Origin: Saprospira sp. CCB-QB6
GTDB lineage: Bacteria; Bacteroidota; Bacteroidia; Chitinophagales; Saprospiraceae
Length of the DNA stretch: 64,000 nt
Direction: 5' to 3'
Assembly: GCF_028464065.1 (NCBI RefSeq)
Contig: NZ_CP116808.1
Location: 1,263,886 to 1,327,885 of the forward strand
Position 1 is the stretch's first letter; every line of letters starts with the position of its first letter. Position numbers and translations under genes: made by a program. A model generated the notes under the pieces. That model saw only the letters and a program-made list of their open reading frames with translations. It searched no databases and had not been told where the DNA came from. This document shows, piece by piece, positions 26,440 through 60,606 of the stretch.

Positions 26440-26587
26440 GTCCAAGCGGGCCAAAGGCCCGCCGGCCTAGCGATGTGCAGCAGTGCGGCGCAGCCGCAGA
26501 CCAAGGCCGTCAGGCCGCAGGGCCGAGCAGACTTGCGAGCTGCGAAACGTAGCGCCGACGAGCGTAGCGAGGCGGAGGCCCCAAAAC
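26440..26587 (-). repeat. GC-rich modular repeat copy I (beta-type, minus orientation)
   Basis: GGCCTAGCGATGTGCAGCAGTGCGGCGCAGCCGCAGACCAAGGCCGTCAGGCCGCAGGGCCGAGCAGACTTGCGAGCTGCGAAACGTAGCGCC...GGCGGAGGCCCCAAAAC. Confidence 0.8.
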
Positions 26588-28445: not shown

Positions 28446-28584
28446 GATTTAGGAATCTCTTTATCATCCCTGTAGGTTAAAACCTACAGCAACAATGGCA
28501 TTACTGCGCAATGAACTATAAATAAGGGTTTAAACCCTCACAAAGTTAATCATTTGAATGCACAAGATGCTGAATAGTTGGTGA

Positions 28585-28709
28585 TTTTGGGGCCTCCGCC
28601 TCGCTTCGCTCCTCGGCGCTACGTTCCGCAGCTCGCTGTTCGCTCGGCCCTGCGCTGCCAAAGGCAGCTTGGTCTGGCCCTTCGGGCCACTGCTGCACAT
28701 CGCTAGGCC
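28585..28709 (+). repeat. GC-rich modular repeat copy J (beta-type); hairpin CTGTAGGTTAAAACCTACAG lies just upstream at 28470-28489
   Basis: TTTTGGGGCCTCCGCCTCGCTTCGCTCCTCGGCGCTACGTTCCGCAGCTCGCTGTTCGCTCGGCCCTGCGCTGCCAAAGGCAGCTTGGTCTGGCCCTTCGGGCCACTGCTGCACATCGCTAGGCC. Confidence 0.8.
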
Positions 28710-32324: not shown

Positions 32325-32484
32325 GGCGGCGAAGCCGCCAAAAGGAGCGCAGCGACGCGGCTGAGGGATGGACAGCAGTGGCCCGCAGGGCCAGACCAAG
32401 CTGCCTTTGGCAGCGCAGGGCCGAGCGAACAGCGAGCTGCGGAACAGCCCGACCCGCCCGAAGGGCGGGGCAGCCCCTAAAAAG
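32325..32484 (-). repeat. GC-rich modular repeat copy K (alpha-type, minus orientation)
   Basis: GGCGGCGAAGCCGCCAAAAGGAGCGCAGCGACGCGGCTGAGGGATGGACAGCAGTGGCCCGCAGGGCCAGACCAAGCTGCCTTTGGCAGCGCAGGGCCGAGCGAACAGCGAGCTGCGGAACAGCCCGACCCGCCCGAAGGGCGGGGCAGCCCCTAAAAAG. Confidence 0.8.
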
Positions 32485-35730: not shown

Positions 35731-35878
35731 TTTTGGGGCCTCCGCAGCAAAGCTGCGGCGCTACGCTTTGGGGCTCGCAAGTCTGCTCGGCCCTTCGCTT
35801 TTTCGCTACGCTCAAAAGCTCGGTCTGGCCTGCGGCCACCCCGCCGCATCGCTAGGCCAAGGCGGCTGCGCCGCCTCC
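35731..35878 (+). repeat. GC-rich modular repeat copy L (beta-type)
   Basis: TTTTGGGGCCTCCGCAGCAAAGCTGCGGCGCTACGCTTTGGGGCTCGCAAGTCTGCTCGGCCC...GGTCTGGCCTGCGGCCACCCCGCCGCATCGCTAGGCCAAGGCGGCTGCGCCGCCTCC. Confidence 0.8.
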
Positions 35879-36925: not shown

Positions 36926-37071
36926 GGCTGGGCGGGGAGCGCCAATGGCCTAGCGATGTGCAAGGGTGGCCGTCAGGCCAGACCGAGGCGCAAAGCGCCG
37001 AAGGGCCGAGCAGAACTGCGAGCCCTGCAACGTAGCGCCGCAAGGCGAAGCCGCAGCGGAGGCCCCAAAAA
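36926..37071 (-). repeat. GC-rich modular repeat copy M (beta-type, minus orientation)
   Basis: GGCCTAGCGATGTGCAAGGGTGGCCGTCAGGCCAGACCGAGGCGCAAAGCGCCGAAGGGCCGAGCAGAACTGCGAGCCCTGCAACGTAGCGCCGCAAGGCGAAGCCGCAGCGGAGGCCCCAAAAA. Confidence 0.8.
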
Positions 37072-41143: not shown

Positions 41144-41277
41144 TTTTTTGGGGCCTCAGCTGCGGCTTCGCCTTGCTGCGCTACGCTTTGGGGCTCGCAG
41201 GTCTGCTCGGCCCTTCAGGCTACACTTCGTTTCGCCTTCGGTCTGGCCTAACGGCCACCCCGCCGCATCGCTAGGCC
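41144..41277 (+). repeat. GC-rich modular repeat copy N (beta-type), left arm of a tight inverted pair
   Basis: TTTTTTGGGGCCTCAGCTGCGGCTTCGCCTTGCTGCGCTACGCTTTGGGGCTCGCAGGTCTGCTCGGCCC...GGTCTGGCCTAACGGCCACCCCGCCGCATCGCTAGGCC. Confidence 0.8.
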
Positions 41278-41414
41278 GCTCCACGGTCTTTTTGCTCTTG
41301 GCATTCTTCTTCGGCCCTCCATTCATTCCGTTCAATTCATGAGGGTTTTACCCCTCATTCATATATCATTGCGAAGCAATACCACTCTAGCTGTAGGTTT
41401 CAACCTACAGTAAA
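41278..41414. repeat. Conserved core between inverted pair N/O (TTCATGAGGGTTTTACCCCTCATTCATATAT...GCAATACCACTCTAGCTGTAGGTTTCAACCTACAG)
   Basis: About 80% identical to the core 58326-58479 between pair T/U. Contains hairpins ATGAGGG-TTTTA-CCCCTCAT and CTGTAGGTT-TC-AACCTACAG. Confidence 0.7.
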
Positions 41415-41553
41415 AAGGGCCGAAGGCCCGCGGCTGAGGGGCTGTAGCCGTGCCGCCGCAGGCGGCAGACCAAAGCGCTGCAAGCGCCGCAGGGCCGAGC
41501 GAGCAGCGAGCGGCGCAAGGGCACGGCCGCCGCAGGCGGCAGGCCCCAAAAAA
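41415..41553 (-). repeat. GC-rich modular repeat copy O (alpha-prime type, minus orientation), right arm of the pair
   Basis: GGGCCGAAGGCCCGCGGCTGAGGGGCTGTAGCCGTGCCGCCGCAGGCGGCAGACCAAAGCGCTGCAAGCGCCGCAGGGCCGAGCGAGCAGCGAGCGGCGCAAGGGCACGGCCGCCGCAGGCGGCAGGCCCCAAAAAAAG. Confidence 0.8.
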
Positions 41554-41612
41554 AGAAAAGGACCAGCACCGAAGTACTGGACCTTTAAAGGGATTAGCAA
41601 AAGCTAATTAAA

Positions 41613-44600
41613 CTATTTGGCCAAAACGAAAGGCAATTGTAGGCGGCCATCTTTACCTTCTAGTTGAAGGATATATTGGCCAGCGGGCAAATTGCTCAGG
41701 TTAAAGTCATATTGTTGTTGGATGCTTGCAGTTTGCGTCCAAACTACTTGGCCCAAAGTATTGAAGATGCGAATTTGTTGTGCACCCTCTAGAGCTTGCT
41801 CCAATTGGAGTTGGAACTGACCGTTGTTGGGGTTGGGGAAAAGCTTAATATTTTGCTCATTCCAAGTTGTAATGCTCGTGCTACAGTCAATGAAAGCAAT
41901 GTTAATGCTAGCGCTGTTGCTACAAGCACCAGCTGTAGTATAAGTAACACTGTGGTTAGCATTGATTGGGCTATTATCAAAGTCAATTGTTCCGGTATTA
42001 GGATCAAGAACTAGGCCTGTGCTACTGCTGAAGGTTCCGCCTGAAACCATTGTAGTTGGCAAAGTGGTCACTTGAGTTCCTAGGCAGAAAGTTGTGGTAT
42101 CATAGACAAAGCTAGCATCATCACGGCCATTGAGGGTAATGATAACGGTATCTACATCGGGACAGCTGCCTTGAGTAGTATAAGAAATCACATAAGCACC
42201 AGCTTGGCTATTGGCTAGGTCAATTGTACCTCCAAAGCTTTCTAGAACGATACCAGGAGTAGAAGTGAACAAACCGTTGTTGCTTGCATTGATTTGCGCA
42301 ATGGGGTTCGTTCCATCGAGGCAATAGCTACTCATAGGATAGCTAATATCTGCCGTATCGGCTGCATCAATATTGATGACAAAAGTATCCAAATCTGCAC
42401 AAGCGTTGGGTGTAGTATACACGATCGCATGAAGACCAGCACTAGAGTTATCTACATTGACGGCTCCTGTTGTGGGGTTCAGATCAAGTGCATTAGAGGG
42501 GCTGCTAAAGCTACCGCCTTGGGTAGCAAAAACAGTGGGGGTAACAGTACCTGCACCAAAGCAGTAATTAGCCATAGGATAGCTAATATCTGCCGTATCA
42601 GCATCAGCGATAGCAACAGCAACAGTGTCATAATCCATACAGCTCATGTTTGGACCAACACCATAAATAACGCTATAGGCTGCGATAGAAGAAGAACCAG
42701 CAGAAATCTCACCAGTTAGGCTGTCAATATCGAGGCCAGCAGTGCTCATATAAATACCGCCGAGATCACCATTGTTAGTCACGGCAACTTGTCCAGAGTT
42801 TTGGCAATAAGAAGCGAAAGGATAGCTAATATCAGCTACAGGCGTTACGCTATTTTGTGTGATAGCTAGAACATAAGCACCAGTATTTGATAGAAATCCC
42901 TCCACCATTACATAGAACGTATCTTGGTAAGTAACGGGCGTGCCCAAAATTTCTGATTGCGTTCCACAAGAAGCATCGTCATTGCTAGCAATTTCGACCA
43001 AGTTAGCATCATAAATACGGAGGTAAGTATCGAAGCTAGAGCCACAAAGTGAGGCGTCAATAGTGGTTACACAGGGGTCGGTAATAACCACTTGATACCA
43101 TACATCAGCTGATGTATACCCCATAAAGTCCGTATAACAGCTAGCCGTACTGCTTGTATCATTAAAAGTAGCTGTAGTGACTACGATAGGATCGGTGGGA
43201 GTATCTCCGTTAACAGCACAAAGTGTAGTGAAGCTAGTCATCGTCCAAGCAGAGGTATCGCCAGGAGCACAAACTGCACGAACATAAACATCGTAGGTTG
43301 TATTATCCATCAGGCCTGTTTGGCTACTACTGTTTGTATTGATTACTGCAGTAGTTCCTGTAGGAGTATTTCCAGCCATCACTACTTCTAGTTGGAAGTT
43401 AGTTGCAGCTGCTGTCCAGTTCAAATCAGCTGAAGTAGCTGTAATATTGCTTGCGGTTAGGCCAGAAACAGGCACACAAGAAGGCAAGTCATCAAATGCA
43501 ACATCATCAATTAGGATATCATTTTCAAAAGGACTACTAGCTGCATCTTCTACTACGGTAAAGCGAGCTTGCACAGGGCCCGTAATTGTAAATAGGCTCA
43601 AGTCTATCATGACCTCATGCCAGTTTGGAAAATCTTGGCGAATAGTGTCTACAGTCGTCCAGTTGGCCCCATCATAAATATCAATAATCAAAGTATTATT
43701 TACACCTGGATCATCTACATTATTAGAGTATACCCAAAAAATAAGGCCTGGGCGAGTCAAAGCGGTAACATCTACCTGAGGAGTCTCTAGGGTAGAAATC
43801 TGAGTAGCACCATTGGGAGAAGAACCATCAATCCAAGCATAGTTTCCACCATTACCAGTATGATCGCCGGCACTGCTAGCCCCATATCCAGCAGCGGTAC
43901 TATACTTCCATGCCTCAGAACCACTTTCAGTCCAACAGTTAGGTGTAGCAGAACCATCAAAGGTCTCTAGGTAAGGCGCAGAGAAAATACCACAGGCTGT
44001 TGTGAAGCTTAAAGGAGCGGTGTAGGTCGCCGTATCTCCAACGCCACAGAATGGACGAATGTAAACATCATAATCTGTAGCAGCCATTAAGCCCGTCAAA
44101 TTAAATGGAGAGGTTGTAGCCGAAACCATTGTTCCTGCCCCCTGCGTAAAACCAGTAGGTCCATACTCTACAATATAAGCGCCTGCAGTAACAGTATTAT
44201 TGTCTGTCCAAGCCAAATCTACTGAAGAGGTAGTAATATTAGAGGCCGTCATATTCGCAGCAGTCAAACAAGTGGGCAAGTCGGCAAAACTAATATCATC
44301 TAACAAGATGTCATTATAAAAGGGAGAAGTAGGACAATCCTCTACCACTGTAAAACGAGCCTGAACATTGCCCGTAATCGTATAAGTAGAAAGATCCACC
44401 TGAAACTCCACCCAATCAATGCTATCTTGACGGAAAGTATCCACATTGTTCCAAGTGGCCCCATCAAAAAAGTCAATGATTAAGGTGTTATTATCTCCAG
44501 GGTTATTGGCATTATTACTAAACACCCAATAAGTCAATGTAGGCGTTGTCAAACCCGAAATATCCACCAAAGGAGTTTCCAATGTAGAAATTTGGCTGGC

Positions 44601-44846
44601 TCCAGTTGGAGAAGAACCATCAATCCAAGCATAGTTCCCGCCATTTCCAGTATGGTCAGGAGCATTTCCAGCAGCATATCCAGCAGCAGTACTATATTTC
44701 CATGATTCAGAACCACTTTCTGTCCAACATGTAGGCGTAGCTGTCCCATCAAAGCTCTCCGAATAGGGAGCTGTTTGGGTACACTGCGCTCTCAAGCCAG
44801 CAAAGCTCAAAAAGAGACAGGCCGCAATTAGCGTATAAATTCTCAT
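41613..44846 (-). CDS. Secreted 1077-aa T9SS cargo protein with a duplicated ~270-aa N-terminal domain, Fn3-like modules and a C-terminal sorting domain
   Basis: Signal peptide MRIYTLIAACLFLSFAGLRAQ. The block CWTESGSE.WKYSTAAGY...HTGNGGNYAWIDGSSP.GA.QISTLETP.VD...TLIID occurs twice (about residues 40-290 and 310-560). Fn3-like LTASNIT..S.DL.WT. C-terminal ...IKLFPNPNNGQFQLQL...LPAGQYILQLEGKDGRLQLPFVLAK. Confidence 0.75.
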   Translation of the reverse strand: MRIYTLIAACLFLSFAGLRAQCTQTAPYSESFDGTATPTCWTESGSESWKYSTAAGYAAGNAPDHTGNGGNYAWIDGSSPTGASQISTLETPLVDISGLTTPTLTYWVFSNNANNPGDNNTLIIDFFDGATWNNVDTFRQDSIDWVEFQVDLSTYTITGNVQARFTVVEDCPTSPFYNDILLDDISFADLPTCLTAANMTASNITTSSVDLAWTDNNTVTAGAYIVEYGPTGFTQGAGTMVSATTSPFNLTGLMAATDYDVYIRPFCGVGDTATYTAPLSFTTACGIFSAPYLETFDGSATPNCWTESGSEAWKYSTAAGYGASSAGDHTGNGGNYAWIDGSSPNGATQISTLETPQVDVTALTRPGLIFWVYSNNVDDPGVNNTLIIDIYDGANWTTVDTIRQDFPNWHEVMIDLSLFTITGPVQARFTVVEDAASSPFENDILIDDVAFDDLPSCVPVSGLTASNITATSADLNWTAAATNFQLEVVMAGNTPTGTTAVINTNSSSQTGLMDNTTYDVYVRAVCAPGDTSAWTMTSFTTLCAVNGDTPTDPIVVTTATFNDTSSTASCYTDFMGYTSADVWYQVVITDPCVTTIDASLCGSSFDTYLRIYDANLVEIASNDDASCGTQSEILGTPVTYQDTFYVMVEGFLSNTGAYVLAITQNSVTPVADISYPFASYCQNSGQVAVTNNGDLGGIYMSTAGLDIDSLTGEISAGSSSIAAYSVIYGVGPNMSCMDYDTVAVAIADADTADISYPMANYCFGAGTVTPTVFATQGGSFSSPSNALDLNPTTGAVNVDNSSAGLHAIVYTTPNACADLDTFVINIDAADTADISYPMSSYCLDGTNPIAQINASNNGLFTSTPGIVLESFGGTIDLANSQAGAYVISYTTQGSCPDVDTVIITLNGRDDASFVYDTTTFCLGTQVTTLPTTMVSGGTFSSSTGLVLDPNTGTIDFDNSPINANHSVTYTTAGACSNSASINIAFIDCSTSITTWNEQNIKLFPNPNNGQFQLQLEQALEGAQQIRIFNTLGQVVWTQTASIQQQYDFNLSNLPAGQYILQLEGKDGRLQLPFVLAK

Positions 44847-45084
44847 AAAGTGTATGATTTAATATGAATGAAATAAGGCTTACACAAAACAGTCCGCTCA
44901 AGGCAAAACTAACTTTGAGCTAGTTACAAATTTAATCTTTTTTATACAAAAAATTAAGCCTCAGCACAAATAGACCTATAGCAAATTTTTACAGCATTTC
45001 TTGAATATTTTCGGCCATAAATTTGCAACCCTGTTGCATTTATTATTACATTTGCAACATCGTTACATTTAAAAGACAGAAGCA

Positions 45085-45504
45085 ATGAAACTTTCTTATT
45101 CTTGGCCCCTTCTCCTTTTTGTCCTCCTTTTCGGATTTTCTTCTTGCGAAAAAGACGAGGATGACGATCATGACCATGATCATGCAGAAGTGAGTATCAA
45201 CATTCTCTCTCCGACCAATGACAGCACAGTTACTGACCCCAGTCAAACCCATATTCACGTTCAAGTCACTTCTGATGAGGATTTGCATGATATCTACGTT
45301 TATCTCCAAGTAGAAGGCGATAGCAGTTATATCGCCCCTTTTGGTCCCATGACGGTGCACGAGCATGCCACAACGGTAGACATCGAAGAGGATATCGACC
45401 TCTCTAGCTATCCCGCTGGCACCGAATTTCACCTAGAGGTGGAAGCCTGCGAAGATCATGATTGCGAAGAGAAAGAAACCCAACATATTCACTTCTCTAT
45501 TTAG
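45085..45504 (+). CDS. Small lipoprotein with an Asp/His-rich acidic N-terminal region (possible metal-binding)
   Basis: Lipobox LLFGFSSC. The mature N-terminus is EKDEDDDHDHDHAEV, with His/Asp/Glu clusters throughout (HIHVQVTSDED, EDHDCEEKETQHIHF). Confidence 0.45.
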   Translation: MKLSYSWPLLLFVLLFGFSSCEKDEDDDHDHDHAEVSINILSPTNDSTVTDPSQTHIHVQVTSDEDLHDIYVYLQVEGDSSYIAPFGPMTVHEHATTVDIEEDIDLSSYPAGTEFHLEVEACEDHDCEEKETQHIHFSI

Positions 45505-45561
45505 GTTTTAGTCTAGCCTACTTTGTACTATGGCTGCATCTTCTGAAATAGGAGGATGCAG

Positions 45562-45699
45562 TTTTTTTTGGGGCCTGCCGCCTGCGGCGGCCGTGCCCTT
45601 GCGCCGCTCGCTGCTCGCTCGGCCCTGCGGCGCTTGCAGCGCCTTGGTCTGCCGCCTGCGGCGGCACGGCTACAGGCCACTAGGCCAGTCGCTTCGCTC
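45562..45699 (+). repeat. GC-rich modular repeat copy P, left arm of a tight inverted pair
   Basis: TTTTTTTTGGGGCCTGCCGCCTGCGGCGGCCGTGCCCTTGCGCCGCTCGCTGCTCGCTCGGCCCTGCGGCGCTTGCAGCGCCTTGGTCTGCCGCCTGCGGCGGCACGGCTACAGGCCACTAGGCCAGTCGCTTCGCTCC. Confidence 0.8.
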
Positions 45700-45813
45700 C
45701 TTTGCGGCGGCTTTGCCGCCTGTACAAGCGCTATATTGGACCAAAAAGCGGCCCCTAAACTGAATTAGGGGCCGCTTTGCCGTATTACAAAGCTGCAGGC
45801 AAGCCCGCAGCTA

Positions 45814-45960
45814 GGGCCGCTAGGCCCTAAATGGCCTAGCGATGTGTAGGGGTGGCCCGCAGGGCCAGACCGAGCCAGCTTGCTGCCGAAGGGCCGAGCG
45901 AAGAGCGAGCCCCGGAACGTAGCGCCCTGAGCCCTTGAGGGCGAGGGGAGGCCCCAAAAA
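45814..45960 (-). repeat. GC-rich modular repeat copy Q (beta-type, minus orientation), right arm of the pair; overlaps the 3' end of CDS 45820..48000
   Basis: GGCCTAGCGATGTGTAGGGGTGGCCCGCAGGGCCAGACCGAGCCAGCTTGCTGCCGAAGGGCCGAGCGAAGAGCGAGCCCCGGAACGTAGCGCCCTGAGCCCTTGAGGGCGAGGGGAGGCCCCAAAAAC. Confidence 0.8.
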
Positions 45961-48000
45961 CACCAAATCTAACTCCAATACCTTCAACTCAATCCGTCGA
46001 TTATGCGCTCGGCCCTCTTCGGTTTCATTAGTTGCCGCAGGTTCATTTTCGCCATAGCCCTTCGCCTTCATTCGATCGGGCGAAACACCATGTTCTTGTA
46101 AATAATCGACCACAGCTTTTGCTCGATTATTTGACAAGAGTTGGTTGGCCGCCAAGCTTCCTCGGCTATCCGTATGTCCACCAATTTCTATTTTCATCTT
46201 GGGGTATTGAGCCAATATAGCCAATAAACGATCGAGCTCCTGCCGCCCCTCTTCTTTCAAGTTATACTTATTGGTATCGAAGAAAATATTGTTGAGGCGA
46301 ATTTTAGCCCCCTTTTTCATGGGGTGCAAATACAAATCCACCAACACCTCTTTGTATTCCAATTCCTTGGGCAAATCAATAGACTTACTCTCAGAGAGGA
46401 AATTGGCCTTTTCTGCCAAGAAGCCATAATTGGTCCCCATAGGCAAAACTAAACTATATTCTCCTGTCTTAGGATTAGAGCGGGCAATCCCTGAAGGCCC
46501 TTCTTTGCCCAAGCTCTCATATTGGACCGATGCGGCCAAGGGCGTGCTATCTAAAGCATTAAAGACCCGACCACGGACCAAAAGAACGGCTTCTGGACGA
46601 GCCGCTTCTGGCAGTTTCACTTTCATAATATCTGTTTTGCCAATAGCGTCTTTACCTGAGGAGAAAAAGGCATATTCGCCAGAAGCAGGAAGTGAATAAT
46701 AGGCATCAAAATCAGGCGTATTCAGCTTTGGGCCCAAATTTAAGGGCTCCGACCAATTGGTCCAACTATCATCCAATCTGCGGCTCACAAACATATCGGC
46801 ATGTCCATAACCAGGACGGCCAGAAGTAGCAAAATAAAGAGTTTTGCCATCTGCAGCCAAATAAGGAGAAAGTTCTGAAGCCGCAGTATTAAGCATATCG
46901 CCAGTATGCATAGGGACGGTCCAACTACCATCCTCATTTCTGAAAGAAACATAGATATCTTTAGCCCCTTCCGTATCATCTCGCTCAATTGCTAGAACCA
47001 AAGTTTTCCCATCATTGGCCAAATTATACTCGCCATACTTATTATTGTTATAATAGTCTTCTATCACTAAAGCTTCTGGAAAAGACCAACGATCCTCCCC
47101 CTCTTTATGCGAAAGAGAAAGGCCCTTATCTGATCCCCCATCTTTTTTATACACATTGAGGACCAACAAAGTTTGCCCGTCAGGGGTCACCGAACAAATA
47201 GAGTTATTCCGTTCATTGTTGATTGGACCACCAATATTTTTGGCAGGCAAAAACTGCCCATCTTCGCCCAATTGCGCACACCAAACATCTTGGTTCTTCT
47301 TCTCTCCTAAATTACCAGGATGATCTTGGCGAGTATAATAAAGTAATTGGCCATCAGGAGAAATTAAAGGGGCCAATTCATGGGCCTCACTGTTAATCGC
47401 AGTTCCCAAGTTTATAGGGTCACCTACCTCATTGGCTCCAGCTACTGTTTTTATCTCTACTTGATAGTCGACTTCCTCCTCAGAAATACCAATGGCATCA
47501 ATCTGATTATAACCATAAACCATACGTGTATTCAATTGAAGCTGAATAGCAGCAACCAAAAAGTCGGTGCTTTCTTCCAATATAAATTTACTTAGCTTCC
47601 CTGGCTTATCCTTATTTTCTTTGCTCAATTCTGGCGTTTGCTGAAAGACCAAACGCACTTCCCCCTTACTGCCATAAGCGACAATCTTTTCTATCGCTCC
47701 TGGATTAAAAGCCTCAGAAACCGTAATCTGCTTAACCTTCTGTGGAACAGAAAATCCCACCTTGATAAATTCTCCATCTCCATTAGACTTTGATTTAGGA
47801 GTCCAAGCACAAGGTGTACCTGAAGTTGTATTGGCAGGGATTACAGAAGGACTACCCAAAGCCCCTCGAGCTCCATATTGCCCTTTGTGTTTAGAAGAAC
47901 TAAACTCTGAAGATTTCTCTAAAACGGAAGAAGCCCATTGTACAGACTGTGCAAAGAGCAACTGAGGAATAAAACAACTGAGGATAATTAAATAACGCAT
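45820..48000 (-). CDS. OmpA-family protein with TolB-like (PD40) beta-propeller repeats; the C-terminal ~45 codons are read from repeat copy Q
   Basis: Signal peptide MRYLIILSCFIPQLLFAQ. PD40-like blades (SPDGQLLYYT, TPDGQTLLV, AADGKTLYFATSGRPGYGHADMFVS). OmpA motif NIFFDTNKYNLKEEGRQELDRLLAIL...GHTDSRGS...NQLLSNNRAKAV...NRRIELKVLE. The ORF then continues as LDLVFLGPPLALKGSG...ARPFRA, a translation of the repeat. Confidence 0.7.
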   Translation of the reverse strand: MRYLIILSCFIPQLLFAQSVQWASSVLEKSSEFSSSKHKGQYGARGALGSPSVIPANTTSGTPCAWTPKSKSNGDGEFIKVGFSVPQKVKQITVSEAFNPGAIEKIVAYGSKGEVRLVFQQTPELSKENKDKPGKLSKFILEESTDFLVAAIQLQLNTRMVYGYNQIDAIGISEEEVDYQVEIKTVAGANEVGDPINLGTAINSEAHELAPLISPDGQLLYYTRQDHPGNLGEKKNQDVWCAQLGEDGQFLPAKNIGGPINNERNNSICSVTPDGQTLLVLNVYKKDGGSDKGLSLSHKEGEDRWSFPEALVIEDYYNNNKYGEYNLANDGKTLVLAIERDDTEGAKDIYVSFRNEDGSWTVPMHTGDMLNTAASELSPYLAADGKTLYFATSGRPGYGHADMFVSRRLDDSWTNWSEPLNLGPKLNTPDFDAYYSLPASGEYAFFSSGKDAIGKTDIMKVKLPEAARPEAVLLVRGRVFNALDSTPLAASVQYESLGKEGPSGIARSNPKTGEYSLVLPMGTNYGFLAEKANFLSESKSIDLPKELEYKEVLVDLYLHPMKKGAKIRLNNIFFDTNKYNLKEEGRQELDRLLAILAQYPKMKIEIGGHTDSRGSLAANQLLSNNRAKAVVDYLQEHGVSPDRMKAKGYGENEPAATNETEEGRAHNRRIELKVLELDLVFLGPPLALKGSGRYVPGLALRSALRQQAGSVWPCGPPLHIARPFRA

Positions 48001-48161
48001 ATAATTATATAATTTTTGTGGAGAATTGGCCCGAAGATAGGAACTCCCTATCTAGTTCTGCTCACTTTATACCCGATAAAGCTAAAAGTTAGTTCCCCCT
48101 ACAAAAAAAGGCCCAGCCTATAAAAGACTGAGCCCACTATCAAACTTCAAAGACTGAAAGA

Positions 48162-49619
48162 TTATTTGTTAAAAACATAGCTATAATCTCCACTAAAGTT
48201 CTCATAAAAACCATCCAACTTCACTTCTCCCTCTGCCGCTATAATAGCCTTAATGAACTCTTCTTCTGTGCTCACTTTTTGGCCATTCACCGCCTCAATA
48301 ATAAAGTCGCGATCCATATTCGTATTTTCCATCAAACTGCCCGAACGAATTTTAGTGACAATCAAGCCCTTTTCTACATCCAAGCGGCGACGCTCTTTGC
48401 TATTCAACTGTCGAAGATCTACCCCCAACTCTTCCAAAATAGTCGCCTCATTTCTGAAACGCTCCGAACGAGGCTTGTCCTCTATCGTATTCCCATTAGA
48501 CGCATTTTTAAGCTCAACCTTGGTCTCATAAGATTTCCCCTCTCGGAAATAAATGATGGCCACCTCTTGCCCAGGTCGGAATAGCCCCACCTGCTCCTGA
48601 AGCTCCGGAGAACTCTTCACTTTCACATTGTTCACATGCGTGATAATATCCCCAGACTTTAATCCCCCCTCTTCTGCTGCACTCCCCGAATTGACTCGGT
48701 CCAAATAAACCCCGTCCAAAGAGTTTAAGGCCATTTCCTTCGCCAACTCATTACTGACGTCCCGAATCGTCACGCCCAAAAAGCCTCTTTGTACCTCACC
48801 ATATTCAATTAGGTCTTTGGCCACCTTACGCGCCAAATTCACAGGCACCGCAAAAGAATACCCCTCATAACGCCCCGAACGCGTGATAATAGCCGTGTTG
48901 ATCCCCACCAAACGACCCTCCGCATCAATCAAAGCGCCTCCACTGTTACCCGGATTTACCGCAGCATCTGTCTGAATAAAAGACTCAATAGAATAAGTCC
49001 CCTCCAAAATATCAATGTTGCGCCCCTTGGCCGATACAATCCCCGCCGTCACCGTAGACGTCAAATTAAAAGGATTTCCAACAGCCAAGACCCACTCACC
49101 AACCTGCAGCTGATCCGAATTGGCAAAACCCAATACAGGCAACTCACGCCCATCCAATTCCTCTTCCTCCACCTTGATTACGGCCAAATCCGTAGACGGA
49201 TCCGTCCCAATAACCTTCGCCTTGTATTTTCGACGATCATTGAGGGTCACCTCAACCTGCCGAGCCCCTTCCACTACGTGGTTGTTCGTCAACATATACC
49301 CATCCTTACTGATAATCACCCCAGAACCCGAAGCCCCAGAACCAAAATCAAATAATTCCTCATTTCCGCCATTAGACTGAATATGAACCACCGAAGGACG
49401 AGCCAAATTGGCCGCCGCCTTAAAATCCTTGGGCCGATCCGTTAACGGACTCCCATAAGGACTATCATTATAATAGGTCGCCTGATATTTAGGGACAAAT
49501 TCCCGCACAATGACTTCTTGCCCGGCAGGACGCTCTTTTTCTAGACAGGTTTTATAAACCCCCAAGGTCAATCCCGAACTCAAAATCGAAACCGCCAATA
49601 GGATCATTCCATTTTTCAT
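48162..49619 (-). CDS. Do/HtrA/DegP-family periplasmic serine endopeptidase (trypsin domain plus 2 PDZ)
   Basis: Catalytic Ser motif GNSGGALID. His region YMLTNNHVVEGA. Two PDZ-like C-terminal domains (GVYLDRVNSGSAAEEGGLKSGDIITHVNN...; GLIVTKIRSGSLMENT...). Signal anchor MKNGMILLAVSILSSGLTLG. Confidence 0.85.
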   Translation of the reverse strand: MKNGMILLAVSILSSGLTLGVYKTCLEKERPAGQEVIVREFVPKYQATYYNDSPYGSPLTDRPKDFKAAANLARPSVVHIQSNGGNEELFDFGSGASGSGVIISKDGYMLTNNHVVEGARQVEVTLNDRRKYKAKVIGTDPSTDLAVIKVEEEELDGRELPVLGFANSDQLQVGEWVLAVGNPFNLTSTVTAGIVSAKGRNIDILEGTYSIESFIQTDAAVNPGNSGGALIDAEGRLVGINTAIITRSGRYEGYSFAVPVNLARKVAKDLIEYGEVQRGFLGVTIRDVSNELAKEMALNSLDGVYLDRVNSGSAAEEGGLKSGDIITHVNNVKVKSSPELQEQVGLFRPGQEVAIIYFREGKSYETKVELKNASNGNTIEDKPRSERFRNEATILEELGVDLRQLNSKERRRLDVEKGLIVTKIRSGSLMENTNMDRDFIIEAVNGQKVSTEEEFIKAIIAAEGEVKLDGFYENFSGDYSYVFNK

Positions 49620-49750: not shown

Positions 49751-49898
49751 TTTTTTGGGCCTCCCCTCGCCCTCAAGGGCTCAGGGCGCTACGTTCCGGG
49801 GCTCGCTCTTCGCTCGGCCCTTCGCCAGCAAGCTGGCTCGGTCTGGCCCTGCGGGCCACCCCTACACATCGCTAGGCCATGATGGCCTTCGGCCATCC
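49751..49898 (+). repeat. GC-rich modular repeat copy R (beta-type) plus trailing hairpin ATGATGGCCTTCGGCCATCC
   Basis: TTTTTTTGGGCCTCCCCTCGCCCTCAAGGGCTCAGGGCGCTACGTTCCGGGGCTCGCTCTTCGCTCGGCCCTTCGCCAGCAAGCTGGCTCGGTCTGGCCCTGCGGGCCACCCCTACACATCGCTAGGCC. Confidence 0.8.
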
Positions 49899-51539: not shown

Positions 51540-52199
51540 TTAGGAGGCTATGGCTGTTTGTATGGTAGCATCTATATCTTCTACATACTCTTCAAATACG
51601 GCACTTATTTGTATAACATCTGGAAATGTTAAATCCGAGGCCTGATCATTGTAATGCAGCACTTTATTCCTCTTTAAAACAATACTTTGGATCAAGTCTT
51701 TATGCTGAATATATGAAGAAACCTTATCCAAATCTATCCCCATATAAGAAAATGCTACCTTCGTCCTATCTGGGTTTCCCGAAATGAAATCATCAAAACC
51801 ATTTTCATTTTCTTGTAGCAAGAATATCGCTTCTGCATTTTCCCTTTTTTCTAAATCCTTCGTTGCTTTATTTACAGCTGCTTTAGAAAACTTATTTTCT
51901 TTATCTCTTGATGCAATTACGATAACATTTTTAGGGAGATTTGCATTAGCCACCCTTTGCTGATACTCTTTATATATCTCTGATAAAACGTCTTTCAAAT
52001 AGCTTTCCAAACAAACACAAAGTTGTACTAATGCCGACTTCGTCAGAAAGTTAGCATGTTCTATGACAAACTGCTCAGCTCCTGAGCCACTACTCTGGCC
52101 AAGTTGTACCTTATGGCTGTCATTTACAAAGGTCCTTAAATCATTTAAATTGTCTATATATCTTTTGTAGGATGTTGTTTTTAGGTTACTCATAGCCAT
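51540..52199 (-). CDS. HEPN-like protein (Rx4H motif; MAE_28990/Swt1-like by context), second gene of a DUF262-HEPN module
   Basis: 219 aa, predicted all-helical. C-terminal region IQSIVLKRNKVLHYNDQ gives R-x4-H, the HEPN RNase signature. Overlaps the upstream DUF262 gene by 14 bp. About 35% GC. Confidence 0.45.
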   Translation of the reverse strand: MAMSNLKTTSYKRYIDNLNDLRTFVNDSHKVQLGQSSGSGAEQFVIEHANFLTKSALVQLCVCLESYLKDVLSEIYKEYQQRVANANLPKNVIVIASRDKENKFSKAAVNKATKDLEKRENAEAIFLLQENENGFDDFISGNPDRTKVAFSYMGIDLDKVSSYIQHKDLIQSIVLKRNKVLHYNDQASDLTFPDVIQISAVFEEYVEDIDATIQTAIAS

Positions 52200-53217
52200 C
52201 TATTTCTGAGAGTTTTGAAATCCATAGCTCACGACGTTTTAGGATAGAGCTTTTTTTCTGTGTTCCCCCTGATAGTTTTTGTTGGAACTTAGGCATTTGA
52301 CAAAGCTGATTAAATTTTTCTTGAATTTCCTCCTTATGCGCTAAAGCCCAATCGCGTCTCCCTGTCAAAGACCACATGATTAGGTCATAATGTGCATTAC
52401 TATGTCTAGGCTTCTCTTTGGTTACATCCATAAAAGGTTGTTTAAATACCTGTACACAAGTATCTAAAGTCTCGGTAAAGAGTTTCTTTAACTCTTTAAT
52501 TTTGGTTGCTGAAAGATTCTGATTTTCAGCCATACACTGATCCAACCACTTAGCATGGTTACTATCATAAGTCTTTAAATCCTTTTGTAGGGCGAAGTAC
52601 CGTAAAACTAGCTCTTCATCCCTTCGATCATCCTTATCCTTGGCTAACTGAAAAGCAGGAAGACCCTGATCGGCTAATTCTTTCAGTAGAGAGTCAAAAC
52701 TTCCAGGGTAAATTGCATGTCGAATCTCTTGATCACTCAGCTTAACAGCTCCTTGGTTCAATCGAGCAAAAATCTCATTCACTAGCCCTTTGGGGTTGTT
52801 CTTTCTCAACACCACACAACGAATAGTTGTATTTTCTAAATCTGCCTGATAAGTGCCTAACTCTGAGAACTTCTTATTATTCAATTCTGGATATACAGTC
52901 AATCCTTCTAAAGCAAATTCGTCCGCAAAAAATCGTCGTATAGTAGTAATTCTTTGTACACCGTCAATCACTTCATGGCTTCCATCCTCTCGCTCTGCAA
53001 AATAACAAGCAGGTAAAGGAATACGCATTAAGCAAGATTCGATGAATTTAGAGCTCCGCCCTTCACCATCTTTATCCCATTTGTATTTTCGCTGAAAGTC
53101 GGGATCTAAAATTAGTTTTCCATCTCGGACCCTATCATTTAAAGTCTCAAAAGGATAATCAATAGGATAAAGGTTCAAGACCTTCATATTCTCTTCCGTG
53201 TTTGTATTACTGGCCAT
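52186..53217 (-). CDS. DUF262 (GmrSD N-terminal / ParB-Srx-like NTP-binding) domain protein
   Basis: N-terminal LYPIDYPFETL...LDPDFQRKYKWDKD (QR.YxW box) and EVIDGVQRITTI (DGQQR box), both hallmark DUF262 motifs. No DUF1524/HNH C-terminal domain is recognisable. 343 aa. AT-rich codon usage. Confidence 0.7.
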   Translation of the reverse strand: MASNTNTEENMKVLNLYPIDYPFETLNDRVRDGKLILDPDFQRKYKWDKDGEGRSSKFIESCLMRIPLPACYFAEREDGSHEVIDGVQRITTIRRFFADEFALEGLTVYPELNNKKFSELGTYQADLENTTIRCVVLRKNNPKGLVNEIFARLNQGAVKLSDQEIRHAIYPGSFDSLLKELADQGLPAFQLAKDKDDRRDEELVLRYFALQKDLKTYDSNHAKWLDQCMAENQNLSATKIKELKKLFTETLDTCVQVFKQPFMDVTKEKPRHSNAHYDLIMWSLTGRRDWALAHKEEIQEKFNQLCQMPKFQQKLSGGTQKKSSILKRRELWISKLSEIDGYE

Positions 53218-54428: not shown

Positions 54429-54731
54429 ATCCACGGAGTCAATCTGAGATGTCCGTAGACCTCCGTGGCCGCCACGGAGCCAATCTGAGATGTCCGTAGA
54501 CCTCCGTGGCCACCACGGAGCTAATCCGAGATGTCCGTAGACCTCCGTGGCCGCCACGGAGCCAATCTGAGATGTCCGTAGACCTCCGTGGCCACCACGG
54601 AGCCAATCTGAGATGTCCGTAGACCTCCGTGGCCACCACGGAGCTAATCCGAGATGTCCGTAGACCTCCGTGGCCGCCACGGAGCTAATCCGAGATGTCC
54701 GTAGACCTCCGTGGCCACCACGGAGCCAATC
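54429..54731. repeat. 41-bp tandem array of about 7.4 units: ATC(T/C)GAGATGTCCGTAGACCTCCGTGGCC(G/A)CCACGGAGC(C/T)A
   Basis: Each unit has a CTCCGTGG-CC(G/A)-CCACGGAG hairpin (8-bp stem) and an ATCTGAGAT palindrome. Units differ only at 3 positions and there are no spacers. Starts about 22 bp upstream of the start codon of 53265..54407. Confidence 0.85.
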
Positions 54732-54974: not shown

Positions 54975-55196
54975 CCCACAACAAGCCCTTTAGGCTGCAG
55001 TTCGACGGCCAGAGGGAGTAACCGATTTGCAGCAGGCGGCGCAGCCGCCTTGGCCGAAGGCCAAACGGCCCAGCGCTGCGGAGGGGTGGCCGTAAGGCCA
55101 GACCAAAGCCGCCGCAGGCGGCTGCAGGGCCGAACAGACCTGTGAGCCCCGCAGCATAGCGGCGGCCAGCTTTGCTGGCCGCGGGCCCCAAAAAAT
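54975..55196 (-). repeat. GC-rich modular repeat copy S (gamma-type, minus orientation), preceded by a GCAGTTCGACG..AGGGAGTAACC module
   Basis: GGCCCAGCGCTGCGGAGGGGTGGCCGTAAGGCCAGACCAAAGCCGCCGCAGGCGGCTGCAGGGCCGAACAGACCTGTGAGCCCCGCAGCATAGCGGCGGCCAGCTTTGCTGGCCGCGGGCCCCAAAAAA. Confidence 0.8.
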
Positions 55197-55231: not shown

Positions 55232-56734
55232 CTAATTATTGATCAATTGGGCCAGCGGGCTATCTTTTTTGGCAATAAAATCAATAGCCTTGGCTAAATC
55301 TTGGGCAAATACCCGATCGCCCTCAATGGCGGGCACGACTTGACGGAAAGCTTGGCGGCAAGTTTCAATTTGGGGAGAGCTGGGCAAGCTTCTAAACTCT
55401 AGGCTTTGGAGCGCCGCCATCAATTCAATCGCCAAAAGGCGCTCTACATTATGGACCAAGCGATAAAGTTTGGTCCCTGCATTGGCCGCCATACTCACAT
55501 GATCCTCTTGGCCATTACAAGAGACCAAGGAATCTACAGAAGCGGGCGTGCAGAGCTGTTTATTTTGGCTAGCGATAGAGGCCGCCGTATATTGGCCAAT
55601 CATCAGGCCAGAGTGTAGGCCCGAATTGGGCGTAAGGAAAGCGGGCAGGCCTCTTTTTCCGCCAATGAGTTGATAAAGGCGGCGTTCAGAGATACTTCCG
55701 AGTTCGGATAAGGCCATTGCCATAAAATCGAGGACCAAGGCTAGCGGCTGAGCGTGGAAATTTCCGCCTGAAAGGATAGCATCTGTTTCTGGGAAAATAT
55801 TGGGGTTATCCGTTACGCTATTGAGCTCGGTGCTCAGTACAGTTTTGGCATATTGCAGGGCATCTTTACTGGCCCCATGTACCTGAGGCACGCAGCGGAA
55901 AGAGTAAGGATCTTGGACCACCTCTTTTTCCTCCTTCATCAAAGGAGAATCGGTCAATAGGATTCTAATATTTTTGGCCGTTTGTAGTTGGCCATTATGG
56001 GGGCGGATAAGATGAAGGCGCTCATCAAAGGGGCTAAGCAGGCCCCCAAAGCCATCAATAGAAATAGCGGCAATGCTATCGGCCCAAAGGCTGAGCTTTT
56101 CCGCCTTCCAATAACTGTAGATGCCATAGGCCAAAGAAAACTGGGTTCCGTTGAGCAGCGCTAGGCCCTCCTTCATTTCGAGGGCAAGAGGCTGCCAGCC
56201 CAATTTTTCTAGGGCTTGAGCCGAGGACATTCGTTCGCCCTCAAAGTAGACCTCTCCCTCGCCTAAAATAGGGAGCGAAAGATGGGCTAGGGGGGCTAAA
56301 TCGCCAGAGGCTCCTAGGCTTCCCAACTGATAGATAACGGGAATAAGGTTCGCATTATAGCTATCAATTAGGCGTTGGAGCAAGATAGGGCGAACGCCCG
56401 AAAAGCCTTGGGCCAGATTCTGAATTTTGAGGAGCAGCATGAGGCGGGCCAGCTCCTCTGGCACCAAATCGCCTGTACCAAAGGCATGAGAGCGGACCAG
56501 ATTATGTTGTAGTTCGCTTAGGGCCTCCTTGCCAATTTTGACATCGCAAAGCGAGCCAAAGCCCGTATTGATGCCATAAAAAGAGTCTTCTGAATTTGCC
56601 ACTTTTTCCTCTAGAAAATCGCGGCAAGCCTTTACCTTGGTCCAAAGCGACTCACTTAATTCAATTTTTGTATGTTTTGTCCAAATCTGATGCAGGGCAT
56701 CTAATGTTAGTTCCTTATCGGTAAGCAAATGCAT
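55232..56734 (-). CDS. hutH: Histidine ammonia-lyase family (HAL/PAL/TAL; MIO-forming Ala-Ser-Gly present)
   Basis: GSLGASGDLAPLAHL contains the ASG triad that forms the MIO cofactor. 500 aa. Substrate (His vs Tyr/Phe) cannot be decided from what I can read. No hutU/hutI neighbours. Confidence 0.75.
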   Translation of the reverse strand: MHLLTDKELTLDALHQIWTKHTKIELSESLWTKVKACRDFLEEKVANSEDSFYGINTGFGSLCDVKIGKEALSELQHNLVRSHAFGTGDLVPEELARLMLLLKIQNLAQGFSGVRPILLQRLIDSYNANLIPVIYQLGSLGASGDLAPLAHLSLPILGEGEVYFEGERMSSAQALEKLGWQPLALEMKEGLALLNGTQFSLAYGIYSYWKAEKLSLWADSIAAISIDGFGGLLSPFDERLHLIRPHNGQLQTAKNIRILLTDSPLMKEEKEVVQDPYSFRCVPQVHGASKDALQYAKTVLSTELNSVTDNPNIFPETDAILSGGNFHAQPLALVLDFMAMALSELGSISERRLYQLIGGKRGLPAFLTPNSGLHSGLMIGQYTAASIASQNKQLCTPASVDSLVSCNGQEDHVSMAANAGTKLYRLVHNVERLLAIELMAALQSLEFRSLPSSPQIETCRQAFRQVVPAIEGDRVFAQDLAKAIDFIAKKDSPLAQLINN

Positions 56735-56836
56735 AAATTGTTAGCTGTTGTGGCCCATTTGGGCCTATATTAAATGATAATCCTGTCTGATTAGGCCGAA
56801 TATAGAAGAAGAGATTTAGAAAAAAAATAAAGCGAT

Positions 56837-57478
56837 ATGAATAGCTCAAAAAATAAGGTCAAGTTCTTAGCTAGGGCCTACTTTTATCTACTCCCTTGGA
56901 GTCGTCCCAAGCGATTGTGGTTATTGGGGCTGTTGATGCTGCTTATCTTTTGCCGTTTTCAGTACCTAACGGCTAGCTGGCGGGCAGCCTTGGGGCCCTT
57001 GACCTCTGGAGAAGAGCTGCAGTTGCTCGATACTCATTTTGGCATTCGGGAAAAAGAGATAATTCCCTTGCTAGAGCATTTGGGGCCCGCCTATCGACAA
57101 GCGCACAGCTACTTATACATCAGCTTAGATTTGATTTATCCTCTCGTTTATGGGCTATTCTTTTCGGCCTTGCTTCTTTTCCTTTTACAGAACTCCTATC
57201 CCCGTTATTTAGGTAGCCTTTATCGCCTAAGTTTTTTCCCTTTTTTGATCGCAATCACCGACCTTTTAGAAAATATATCTTTTATCTTGTTGCTTTGGCG
57301 CTACCCCCAAATTGATCCCTACTTATGGTGTTTGGCCTCCACATTTAACCAGACAAAATGGATCGGGGTCAATTTACTGCTCATTTTGCTCCTACTGGGC
57401 TTTGTTGCTCGCTGGATGAATCGAGTAGAGGTAGCAGAGTTTCGGGCCATGCAAAAACGCTTTGGCTCGGATAAATAA
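56837..57478 (+). CDS. Hypothetical polytopic membrane protein
   Basis: 213 aa with 5-6 hydrophobic segments. No motif recognised. Confidence 0.45.
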   Translation: MNSSKNKVKFLARAYFYLLPWSRPKRLWLLGLLMLLIFCRFQYLTASWRAALGPLTSGEELQLLDTHFGIREKEIIPLLEHLGPAYRQAHSYLYISLDLIYPLVYGLFFSALLLFLLQNSYPRYLGSLYRLSFFPFLIAITDLLENISFILLLWRYPQIDPYLWCLASTFNQTKWIGVNLLLILLLLGFVARWMNRVEVAEFRAMQKRFGSDK

Positions 57479-57519
57479 TCAGACTCATATCAATCATCAA
57501 GCTTTAAAATTAAATCAAG

Positions 57520-58110
57520 ATGTCTAAGAACTTATTGTGGGATGCCGCATTGGCTCGTTTGAAAGAGGGTAATGATCGCTTTGTTAAAGAACAAACAGAA
57601 GGGAAAAAGCAGGCCTTAAATCGCCGTCAGGAATTAACTAAAGGACAGGCTCCTTGGGCCATTATTTTGAGTTGTGCTGACTCTAGAGTGGTTCCCGAAC
57701 TCACCTTTGATACGGGCTTGGGCGAGCTTTTCGTAATTCGAGTAGCGGGCAATATTGCCAATAAAGCCACCTTGGCTAGTATTGAGTATGCCGTTGCTCA
57801 CTTAGACGTCAACTTGATTGTAGTAATGGGTCATGAAAGCTGCGGGGCGGTCACGGCAGCCATGGCAGAGGGCGATGCGGAAAGTAACAACCTAAAACAT
57901 TTGTTAGATTACATTCAGCCGGCCATTGCCGCTTGTCCCCAGGCTCAAAATGTAAATGAGGTCGTAAAGAAAAATGCCGAGCTTACGGCAGAGGCTTTGG
58001 CGGCCAATTCGGCCATCATTCAGAATGAAATCACGCATGGAGAGCTCAAGGTCTTTTCGGCCTATTACAATCTCTCTGATGGACATGTAGACTTTTTTGA
58101 GGAGGCTTAG
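57520..58110 (+). CDS. Beta-class carbonic anhydrase
   Basis: Zinc ligands in CADSRV (CxDSR) and HESCGAV (HxxCG). 196 aa. Confidence 0.85.
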   Translation: MSKNLLWDAALARLKEGNDRFVKEQTEGKKQALNRRQELTKGQAPWAIILSCADSRVVPELTFDTGLGELFVIRVAGNIANKATLASIEYAVAHLDVNLIVVMGHESCGAVTAAMAEGDAESNNLKHLLDYIQPAIAACPQAQNVNEVVKKNAELTAEALAANSAIIQNEITHGELKVFSAYYNLSDGHVDFFEEA

Positions 58111-58622: not shown

Positions 58623-58628
58623 CTCCAC

Positions 58629-60505: not shown

Positions 60506-60606
60506 CAAATTCGAGAAAGATAAAAAAGCGGAGGAAATAACTCCATAGCCTATTTTTTCTCGTATTTTAAAAATCGCTTGCCCCAATCACCTTAAACTCT
60601 AGTCCC

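Follow-up and report, generated by a model that had tools for sequence, protein, structure and literature searches.

Three composite repeats in a 64,000-nucleotide stretch of the Saprospira sp. CCB-QB6 genome (contig NZ_CP116808.1; termed the window) proved to be real at 41144-41553, 45562-45960 and 58196-58622, and each consists of two inverted GC-rich repeats of ~125 nt (termed arms) on either side of a short spacer. In the reading that we favor, to which we assign a probability of roughly 55%, a composite is a tail-to-tail doublet of two different arms within a mosaic of structure-constrained repeats resembling the repetitive extragenic palindromic (REP) sequences, bacterial interspersed mosaic elements (BIMEs) and REP doublets forming hairpins (REPINs) of other bacteria. 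The mosaic system belongs to Saprospira and related Saprospirales and seems undescribed; no description of Saprospira repeats or of their motif string was found in the searchable literature. Arms were detected by iterated nhmmer searches of the window, and a scan of species-representative genomes for the arm motif provided further loci (labelled L001 etc.) that were fetched for comparison. The sample of S. grandis DSM 2844 comprised 69 blocks of 8 kb (552 kb in total), and the sequence examined altogether, the window and 125 loci, amounted to ~1 Mb (~15% of one genome). L001 is a metagenomic contig from a closely related strain with flanks 96-99% identical to the window; L033 and L020 are DSM 2844 loci, the former being ~84% identical. 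A homologue search with the ABC-F protein encoded in the window pointed to Saprospiraceae, the exact protein having no record. At 81-91% identity to the window, DSM 2844 is a different Saprospira. We designate as the head of an arm the end carrying TTTTGGGGC, as its tail the end carrying CATCGCTAGGCC or CATCCCTCAGCC, and as a tight pair two tail-to-tail neighbours with a short gap (<400 nt in the gap counts).

Twenty-one arms were identified in the window, the weakest real copy having an E-value of 1e-11 and the next match one of 11. They are 118-135 nt long, GC-rich (~68% GC in a genome of 46% GC) and composed of 8-10 helices, three of them long-range, and they lie between genes at a spacing of about one per 3 kb in Saprospira genomes. 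Their orientation reads -,+,-,+ without exception over the whole window (20 of 20 neighbouring pairs alternate), an outcome with a chance probability of 0.5^20, or ~1e-6, the first orientation being free. The copies that had been described as "solo" in the original prediction belong to this strictly alternating series and are therefore members of wider-spaced inverted pairs. Among the neighbouring arm pairs of the DSM 2844 sample, 111 of 131 were inverted (binomial p 9e-17). Gaps shorter than 400 nt were observed in 24 of 75 tail-to-tail neighbours, so that the composite is a common, stereotyped arrangement; head-to-head gaps were below 1 kb in one of 52 cases, almost never below 1.3 kb, and had a median of 3.4 kb. 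Apart from one close head-to-head pair and one close direct pair, all close pairs were tail-to-tail. An exception to the alternation rule is found in DSM 2844 at ~4,063,473 and ~4,065,366 of NZ_JH719942 (L074/L017), where two direct arms 1.9 kb apart are 100% identical, probably as the result of a recent tandem duplication.

At the arm boundary TTTTGGGGC, T occupies the four positions preceding the G run in 87-100% of copies, and copies shortened at either end also occur. Arm heads adjoin gene 3' ends in 77 cases (median distance 36 nt) and gene 5' ends in 59 (median 56 nt), and tails lie next to 3' and 5' ends in 39 cases each; the orientation of the arms is unrelated to the direction of transcription of the adjoining genes. 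If the density of the window can be extrapolated to a 4.4-Mb genome, for which this is no count, there would be ~1400 arms making up ~4% of the DNA.

The composite at 41144-41553 opens with a T run, followed by a GC-rich segment (41145-41277), an AT-richer middle and an inverted GC-rich segment (41430-41552) finishing in GGCCCCAAAAA. Its left arm (41145-41277, + strand; nhmmer E 5e-19, model positions 1-125) extends from the head TTTTTGGGGCCT to the tail CATCGCTAGGCC, with a closing stem GGCCT/AGGCC that is present in the DNA minimum-energy fold, and a non-orthologous DSM 2844 arm (L097) matches it at 96% identity. The tail is continued by an AT-richer module that recurs after other arm tails (module E, GCTCCACGGTCTTTTTGCTCTTGGCATTCTTCTTCGGCC; 41278-41318, + strand). 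The core is a second module, module C (41338-41412, + strand; copy defined by hidden Markov model (HMM) at 41341-41410, nhmmer E 3e-19), with hairpins H1 at 41339-41358, H2 at 41368-41380 and H3 at 41390-41410. Two hairpins had been attributed to this core, and we found three: TGAGGG..CCCTCA, ATTGC-GAA-GCAAT and CTGTAGGTT..AACCTACAG. Beside the tail of the right arm, a small GC hairpin, GGGCC-GAA-GGCCC, can be read from the sequence at 41416-41430, and similar small hairpins come after most arm tails. The right arm itself (41430-41552, - strand; nhmmer model positions 1-113) meets an intrinsic-terminator-like hairpin of gene 41613-44846(-), likewise read from the sequence (41548-41586, - strand), whose T run joins the arm head and for which Rfam returned weak small RNA- or terminator-type noise only. 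Such junctions between the T run behind a terminator-like hairpin and the TTTT of an arm head are seen at 41548-41586, 15480-15513 and 45535-45564; either arms favor T runs as sites or the arm supplies the U-tract of the terminator.

The core of the 58-kb composite is homologous to that of the 41-kb composite, as had been proposed (nhmmer E 1e-39 and 2e-45), and the motif ATGAGGGnnnnnnCCCTCATTCATAT (pattern ATGAGGGn6CCCTCATTCATAT) occurs exactly twice in the window against none expected. The left arm (58199-58325, + strand; repeat finding and nhmmer), 98% identical to the - strand arm ending at 55194, is followed by a copy of module E (58326-58372, + strand; recognised by alignment with 41278-41318) and by module C (58395-58466, + strand; HMM copy 58397-58466, nhmmer E 2e-15). 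The right arm (58497-58621, - strand; nhmmer) combines a GGCTG-type head with a matching CAGCC-type tail. Its orthologue in DSM 2844 is L033:1761-1893, and at the orthologous site of the module C copy a ~90-nt insertion breaks H1. The core of the 45-kb composite is different, also in agreement with the original prediction, and consists of a bidirectional terminator-like hairpin between convergent genes (AAAAAGCGGCCCCTAA...TTAGGGGCCGCTTTG, 45743-45779; read from the sequence and conserved in L001). The left arm of this composite (45565-45686, + strand; nhmmer E 8e-17) comes directly after the terminator-like hairpin of gene 45085-45504, and the right arm (45833-45960, - strand; found by repeat finding and nhmmer) is 98% identical to the + strand arm starting at 49751, 3.8 kb away. 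An OmpA/PD40 open reading frame (ORF; 45820-48000, - strand) reads through this right arm and encodes 726 aa, as compared to 678 aa for the gene in L001; apparently an arm beside a stop codon can alter the C-terminus of a protein.

The pairing of inverted arms in the composites is thus confirmed, but the two arms of a pair are not closely alike: their identity is 65%, 70% and 64% in the 41-, 45- and 58-kb composites, where gaps of 165, 146 and 183 nt, respectively, separate the HMM-aligned arm ends. Each composite arm is instead 95-98% identical to an arm 3-4 kb off. Around the gene blocks 41613-45504, 45820-49619 and 55232-58110, the bracketing arms are 95%, 98% and 98% identical, and an identity of at least 80% was reached by 29% of head-to-head neighbours, 21% of distant tail-to-tail neighbours and 8% of random pairs. 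In 19 tight pairs the arms were 61-75% identical, below the median of random pairs (p 0.02).

Comparison with related genomes indicated stable positions and replaced sequences. In the parts of L001, L002, L020 and L033 that are syntenic with the window, all arms occupy the same sites, and the composites were found at orthologous sites in L001 (41 and 45 kb) and DSM 2844 (58 kb, L033). Five of seven arms orthologous between the window and L001 are 74-85% identical, four of these beside flanks of 96-100% identity; the right arm of the 45-kb composite is 74% identical to its L001 orthologue next to a 96% identical flank. In the L001 version of the 41-kb composite, H3 is missing and the left arm contains an additional inserted module, and the arrangement is different again in L002 and L004. 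In a four-way alignment with the L001 orthologues, the right arm of the 41-kb composite matches the left arm of the 45-kb composite over 113 nt with a single mismatch; both orthologues differ from this tract, and each arm retains its own older tail. The right arm of the 41-kb composite is accordingly a chimera, its head GGCCT mismatching the retained tail CCCCTCAGCC (CAGCC), and its identity is 0.95 to the left arm of the 45-kb composite and 0.80 to its own orthologue. The two inverted arms, which lie 4 kb apart, have recently undergone exchange or gene conversion, and it is through exchange with inverted neighbours that the sequence of an arm is overwritten at its site. Similarity is lowest in the closest pairs, and simple distance-dependent gene conversion was therefore rejected as the whole account. 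Four strain or species comparisons covering ~13 blocks bounded by arms, all collinear, showed neither inversion nor module exchange.

Two differences in gene content were also encountered. A 3.8-kb block of four genes at 58622-62462 (a bestrophin-like gene, a gene for a pyridoxal phosphate-dependent enzyme and two more) is absent from the orthologous site of DSM 2844 and starts exactly at the head of the right arm of the 58-kb composite. At 51540-53217, a gene pair encoding HEPN RiboL-PSP and GmrSD_N (DUF262) domains, which is not bounded by arms and looks like a small defence islet, forms a clean 1.75-kb indel relative to DSM 2844 (L033 6623/6627).

RNAalifold, applied to 127 distinct arms, gave a fold closed by a stem in which the head pairs with the tail; two more long-range helices and local hairpins complete it, and 16 of its 26 pairs are changed on both sides. 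The fold is kept in Phaeodactylibacter as well as throughout Saprospiraceae. The closing stem is GGCCT/AGGCC or GGCTG/CAGCC in Saprospira arms and GCGCC/GGCGC, GCACC/GGTGC, GGACC/GGTCC or GCATCA/TGATGC in other Saprospiraceae, and the long-range helices covary across genera. They enclose a junction, GCTCGC-N4-5-GCTCGGCCC ... GGTCTG, whose GCTCGC-N4-5-GCTCGGCCC part is constant across genera, and the three hairpins of each arm vary freely in sequence. Over the 26 pairs, 97% of cells were paired as compared to 79% in column shuffles and 34-62% with slid partners; two-sided changes were counted in 554 cells against 184 in shuffles (none of 500 shuffles was as high), and one-sided changes in 11 cells only. 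When an invariant G:T pair located in the helix GGCC/GGTC is set aside, G:T and A:C combinations are about equally frequent (17 and 15), and the arm stems are almost entirely Watson-Crick, as expected for DNA or for folding of both strands and unusual for an RNA subject to one-strand selection. Wobble asymmetry was considered as an indicator of the functional strand and discarded, the two counts being symmetrical. The triloops read on the head-to-tail strand are TNC in 237 cases and GNA in 5, so that it is the complementary strand that bears C(GNA)G loops, a type of exceptional stability in DNA. The Watson-Crick-only stems and the strand-biased loops pull in different ways as to which molecule folds.

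Module C is a ~70-nt repeat of three hairpins with 29 copies in ~1 Mb (HMM of the shared middle), four of them in the window. The CTGTAGGTT..AACCTACAG hairpin, which the original prediction took for a further module of the same system, is indeed part of it, namely hairpin H3 of module C, and it recurs at 10704-10724 with a compensated G:C change and as CTGTAGGTT..AACCTACAG-type hairpins at 15655-15674 and 28470-28489. Among the 29 copies, compensated variants were recorded for H1 (GAGGG/CCCTC, GATGG/CCATC, GAGGA/TCCTC) and H3 (TAGG/CCTA, TGGG/CCCA), and the 41-kb copy folds as DNA far above shuffles (z -5.7 on the + strand and -6.1 on the other). Twenty copies lie within 120 nt of an arm, and in 16 of these the H3 end is directed towards the arm tail in opposite orientation. 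The module sits at arm tails with or without a second arm beyond and may be present in two or three tandem copies behind one arm (L056, L074, L066). In the window, the copy at 10704-10771 (- strand) has its H3 end 6 nt from the tail of the + strand arm starting at 10579, a lone H3-type hairpin, CTGCAGGTTTCAACCTACAG (15655-15674, + strand), lies 20 nt from the tail of the + strand arm starting at 15514, and the copy at 28470-28539 (- strand) represents the minority arrangement, on the head side of the + strand arm starting at 28585. Module E is also found behind arm tails at 16119-16158 (- strand) and in L006, L121, L045, L093, L077 and L039. In 33 tail-to-tail pairs the spacer is not constant and contains, in varying composition, small GC hairpins, a GTCGCTnCGCTCC motif, module E, module C, bidirectional terminators, other repeats and small genes; few spacers hold the module C core, which is therefore an optional addition to the arms instead of a mobile element's body. 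With recurring linker modules C, E and X, small GC hairpins at the tails and alternating arms, the arrangement has the composition of a BIME-type mosaic.

Module X (GCGACAACAAG..CTTTAG..GCAGTTCGACGACCGAAGGGAGTAA) was seen fused to or beside arm heads at L001:9868-9912, L004:285-340 and L064:6290-6342 and in the head-side flanks of L031, L067 and L086; in L001 and L004 the arm upstream of the ABC-F gene has part of its sequence replaced by this module. Two stretches of the window, 2666-2935 and 54431-54731, consist of tandem repeats with a period of 41 bp (6.6 and 7.3 copies, 95% matches); their consensus sequences are different, and a GC hairpin is contained in every unit. DSM 2844 has a comparable array of 41-nt units between two arms (L039 ~1990-2380). 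These are not CRISPR arrays, since they are without spacers, and look like a third kind of repeat of these genomes.

The proposal that the composite is a ~410-bp non-autonomous foldback transposon, or a similar miniature inverted-repeat transposable element, with ~130-bp terminal inverted repeats around a conserved core now appears very improbable. It draws on the frequency of short-spacer tail-to-tail pairs (24 of 75), on arm heads that face outward directly against unique DNA, on the homologous core of two composites and on the view that REPs move as REPIN-like doublets (PMC5581495). Within a pair, however, the terminal repeats show 61-75% identity and never reach 80%, the spacers vary and include ordinary terminators and small genes, and the core also stands beside arms that have no close partner. 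Target-site duplications and empty sites, both named in the original prediction as checks on mobility, were not found: 18 doublets showed matches of 0-1 nt, and the syntenic stretches of L001, L002, L020 and L033 held no empty site, composites being common to species that are ~84% identical. No related autonomous element was found and there was no transposase near the arms, Pfam searches of 20 window proteins and an inspection of the ORFs of the shortest arm-bounded blocks revealing housekeeping genes only. The genes neighbouring arms include those for ABC-F, S1, tsaD, dapF, gldC, histidine ammonia-lyase and carbonic anhydrase in the window and uvrC, aconitase, mreBC and hisA in DSM 2844. Retroposition in the manner of short interspersed nuclear elements (common 3' end, antisense A run) was dropped as copies truncated at either end exist; we know of no bacterial mechanism for it. 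Less improbable, although still unlikely in our estimation, is that the arms and/or module C are cis-acting or independently made structured RNAs that spread because the RNA is useful, for example in mRNA 3' end protection or transcript insulation and processing, or as a ~120-nt small-RNA family. A closed multi-helix fold with a conserved unpaired junction and freely varying hairpins, kept over several genera and families, would suit such a molecule, as would the invariant G:U-type pair in GGCC/GGTC, the strong strand bias of the loop composition and the folding of module C far above shuffles (z about -6), and with 77 heads at a median of 36 nt past a stop codon many arms would be transcribed in 3' untranslated regions. 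A structured non-coding RNA gene, the second possibility raised in the original prediction, is all the same not supported. Rfam 15 gave no gathering-score match in the whole window and noise only at E-values up to 10 over both composites. Upstream of the heads only the T run is conserved (of 191 copies 6 have TAnnTTTG, and signals at -7 and -33 are absent), so that there is no promoter-like motif, and no terminator follows the arm tail. The orientation is independent of genes (heads at 77 gene 3' ends and 59 gene 5' ends, tails at 39 of each), one-sided changes from G-C to G-U are nearly absent (11 against 554 cells) with G:T no commoner than A:C, and arm sequences are exchanged wholesale between near-identical strains.

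Alternation and replacement could also be the direct products of a recombinase if the arms were structure- or site-specific recombination sites, like the inversely oriented pdif (XerC/D) sites around modules of Acinetobacter plasmids or the folded attC sites of integrons, that divide the chromosome into gene modules, which we regard as improbable, more so than an RNA. The sites of pdif modules are strictly alternating in orientation, and the arms alternate over gene blocks on the kilobase scale, some of which are bracketed head-to-head by arms of 95-98% identity. The exchanged tract has a sharp boundary inside an arm, a species-variable 3.8-kb block begins exactly at an arm head, and a closed fold with Watson-Crick-only stems is expected of a folded DNA site. 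Yet the ~13 arm-bounded blocks are collinear in four comparisons without inversion or module exchange, the blocks hold housekeeping genes (tsaD, dapF, uvrC, mreB, aconitase), no recombinase gene was identified, none having been sought genome-wide, and homologous gene conversion gives the same tracts without a dedicated enzyme. Equally doubtful is the broader form of this idea, that the arms are the folded-DNA sites of a dedicated chromosome-wide recombination or repair system with more than 1000 sites by extrapolation, which would partition the chromosome into blocks of genes between inversely oriented sites, maintain the alternation and copy site sequence between neighbours. If true, it would be a chromosome-scale analogue of pdif and attC modules, with a new multi-helix DNA fold of ~125 nt, conserved across Saprospirales, as its basis.

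If the composites are, as we favor, doublets within a REP-like mosaic, the fold of the arm would act as a single-stranded nucleic acid that is functional on either strand, which would account for the Watson-Crick-only stems. The likeliest form would be single-stranded DNA exposed in replication or recombination, the same fold being possible in RNA of either direction, and by analogy the folded arm may be recognised via its conserved junction by a putative trans-acting factor, for example a HUH nuclease resembling the REP-associated tyrosine transposases (RAYTs). The alternation would persist because the genes lying between two direct neighbours would be deleted when these recombine, whereas inverted neighbours would only undergo conversion or inversion. 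Close pairs of similar arms would be lost as long near-perfect palindromes, which are unstable, and tight pairs would for this reason be made up of dissimilar arms.

Several observations weigh against this account. A crude scan for a HUH...Y motif over the ~1 Mb, ~15% of one genome, revealed no partner enzyme, and the arms are 4-5 times longer than REPs and lack a GTAG or CGTC tag. No insertion or empty-site polymorphism was seen in the compared strains, and transposition itself is unproven. Several near-identical arms stand in direct orientation (100% and 93% identity), and the purging of direct neighbours is therefore not immediate. The folding energy of the arms is no better than that of dinucleotide shuffles (z -1.4 to +0.5); since their thermodynamic stability does not exceed that of shuffles, the argument for the arm structure is drawn from covariation alone. 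The invariant G:T pair, the conserved junction and the TNC bias hint at one functional strand, and these one-strand signals fit an RNA or a strand-specific reading at least as well as a symmetrical one.

Beyond Saprospira, complete arms are present in several metagenome-assembled genomes (MAGs) of Saprospiraceae, and shorter arms (model positions 1-71 or 5-123) in Lewinellaceae MAGs and in Phaeodactylibacter luteus. Three arms stand in an 8-kb stretch of scaffold 1 of DSM 2844 (56 kb), possibly the plasmid of that strain. The nearest lineage of 38-40% GC (ABC-F 71-73% identical) had no arm, or two weak matches, in 17-22 kb; these relatives were dropped as empty-site controls, being without synteny and almost free of arms. 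Motif matches outside Bacteroidota (Actinomycetota and others) are attributed to chance because none has an HMM match, and two bare-motif matches in viral contigs lie in contigs of 59% GC, neither of which holds an arm. The L002 and L004 contigs both terminate inside arm regions, and arms probably explain breaks of metagenomic contigs in the Saprospira lineage.

The other arms of the window, all detected by nhmmer, are distributed over its whole length. Its first part holds arms at 185-320 (-; E 2e-19), 4183-4309 (+; 1e-24), 5234-5359 (-; 4e-22), 10579-10699 (+; 3e-22), 11922-12039 (-; 4e-26), 15514-15634 (+; 8e-27) and 16159-16278 (-; 3e-22), those at 10579 (L020), 11922 and 15514 occupying the same position in DSM 2844. 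They are followed by arms at 23778-23901 (+; 9e-25), 26464-26586 (-; 2e-21), 28585-28709 (+; 8e-28), 32359-32482 (-; 2e-25), 35731-35858 (+; 3e-20) and 36947-37071 (-; 3e-23), and, between the 45- and 58-kb composites, by those at 49751-49878 (+; 2e-25) and 55067-55194 (-; 4e-19). An ORF of 2451 aa at 16375-23730 (- strand) is made up of 264-nt (88-aa) repeats with an Asp-rich motif of 12-13 codons, and from its sequence the product looks like a giant calcium-binding surface protein.

Should the extrapolated number of arms hold, the system would rank with the densest and most elaborate bacterial systems of interspersed repeats. The rule that governs orientation is unusual, the arms that bracket gene blocks being often near-identical and those of tight pairs always dissimilar, and the arms offer a natural system for the study of inverted repeats, gene conversion and palindrome instability in the shaping of a chromosome. 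The junction GCTCGC...GCTCGGCCC is a candidate binding site for the putative factor.

Several known systems share individual traits with the arms. The sites that bound successive gene blocks in pdif modules also alternate strictly, but they are 28-bp protein-binding sites of plasmids associated with accessory genes, whereas the arms are folded repeats of 125 nt, found on chromosome and plasmid, that bound housekeeping genes and for which no module movement was observed. The attC sites resemble arms in length (~60-140 nt), in structure conserved over sequence and in the pairing of their ends, and they are recognised as folded single-stranded DNA; unlike the alternating and dispersed arms with their conserved central sequence, they are unidirectional in an array beside an integrase gene. 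Pneumococcal BOX and Neisseria Correia elements are likewise modular, intergenic and composed of hairpin boxes in hundreds of copies. Their sequences are unrelated to the arms, Correia elements have terminal inverted repeats and TA duplications, and BOX elements follow no alternation rule.

Closer parallels are found among REPs and their transposases. For the RAYT/TnpA-REP subclass 2.6 of Bacteroidetes (Quentin et al. 2018, PMC6006769), flanking "atypical secondary structures" have been reported; they recur in the genome, are non-canonical like the arms and are presumed to be handled as single-stranded DNA. Saprospira is absent from that article and its supplements, and the structures described there flank a tnpA-REP gene, which was not found in the ~1-Mb arm sample. 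The REPs, BIMEs and REPINs of Enterobacteria and Pseudomonas resemble the arms in more respects: they are high-copy, GC-rich and intergenic with compensated stems, and they form inverted doublets of one preferred type, often heterodimers, with direct, head-to-tail pairs being rare. Their spacers are variable or structured, they assemble into mosaics with linker modules, they show no target-site duplication and they persist for long at their loci (PMC3733652). In contrast to a REP, a single hairpin of 20-40 nt, an arm is a closed multi-helix fold of ~125 nt, its boundary is TTTTGGGGC and neither GTAG nor CGTC is conserved in the arm alignment. The alternation of arms spans gene blocks on the kilobase scale and not only clusters, their core sequence is conserved across families of an order, and the crude scan of ~1 Mb identified no cognate RAYT. 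The Saprospira arms would thus extend the REP/BIME idea to Bacteroidota, in which such systems are barely characterised, and to a larger fold that contains a junction.

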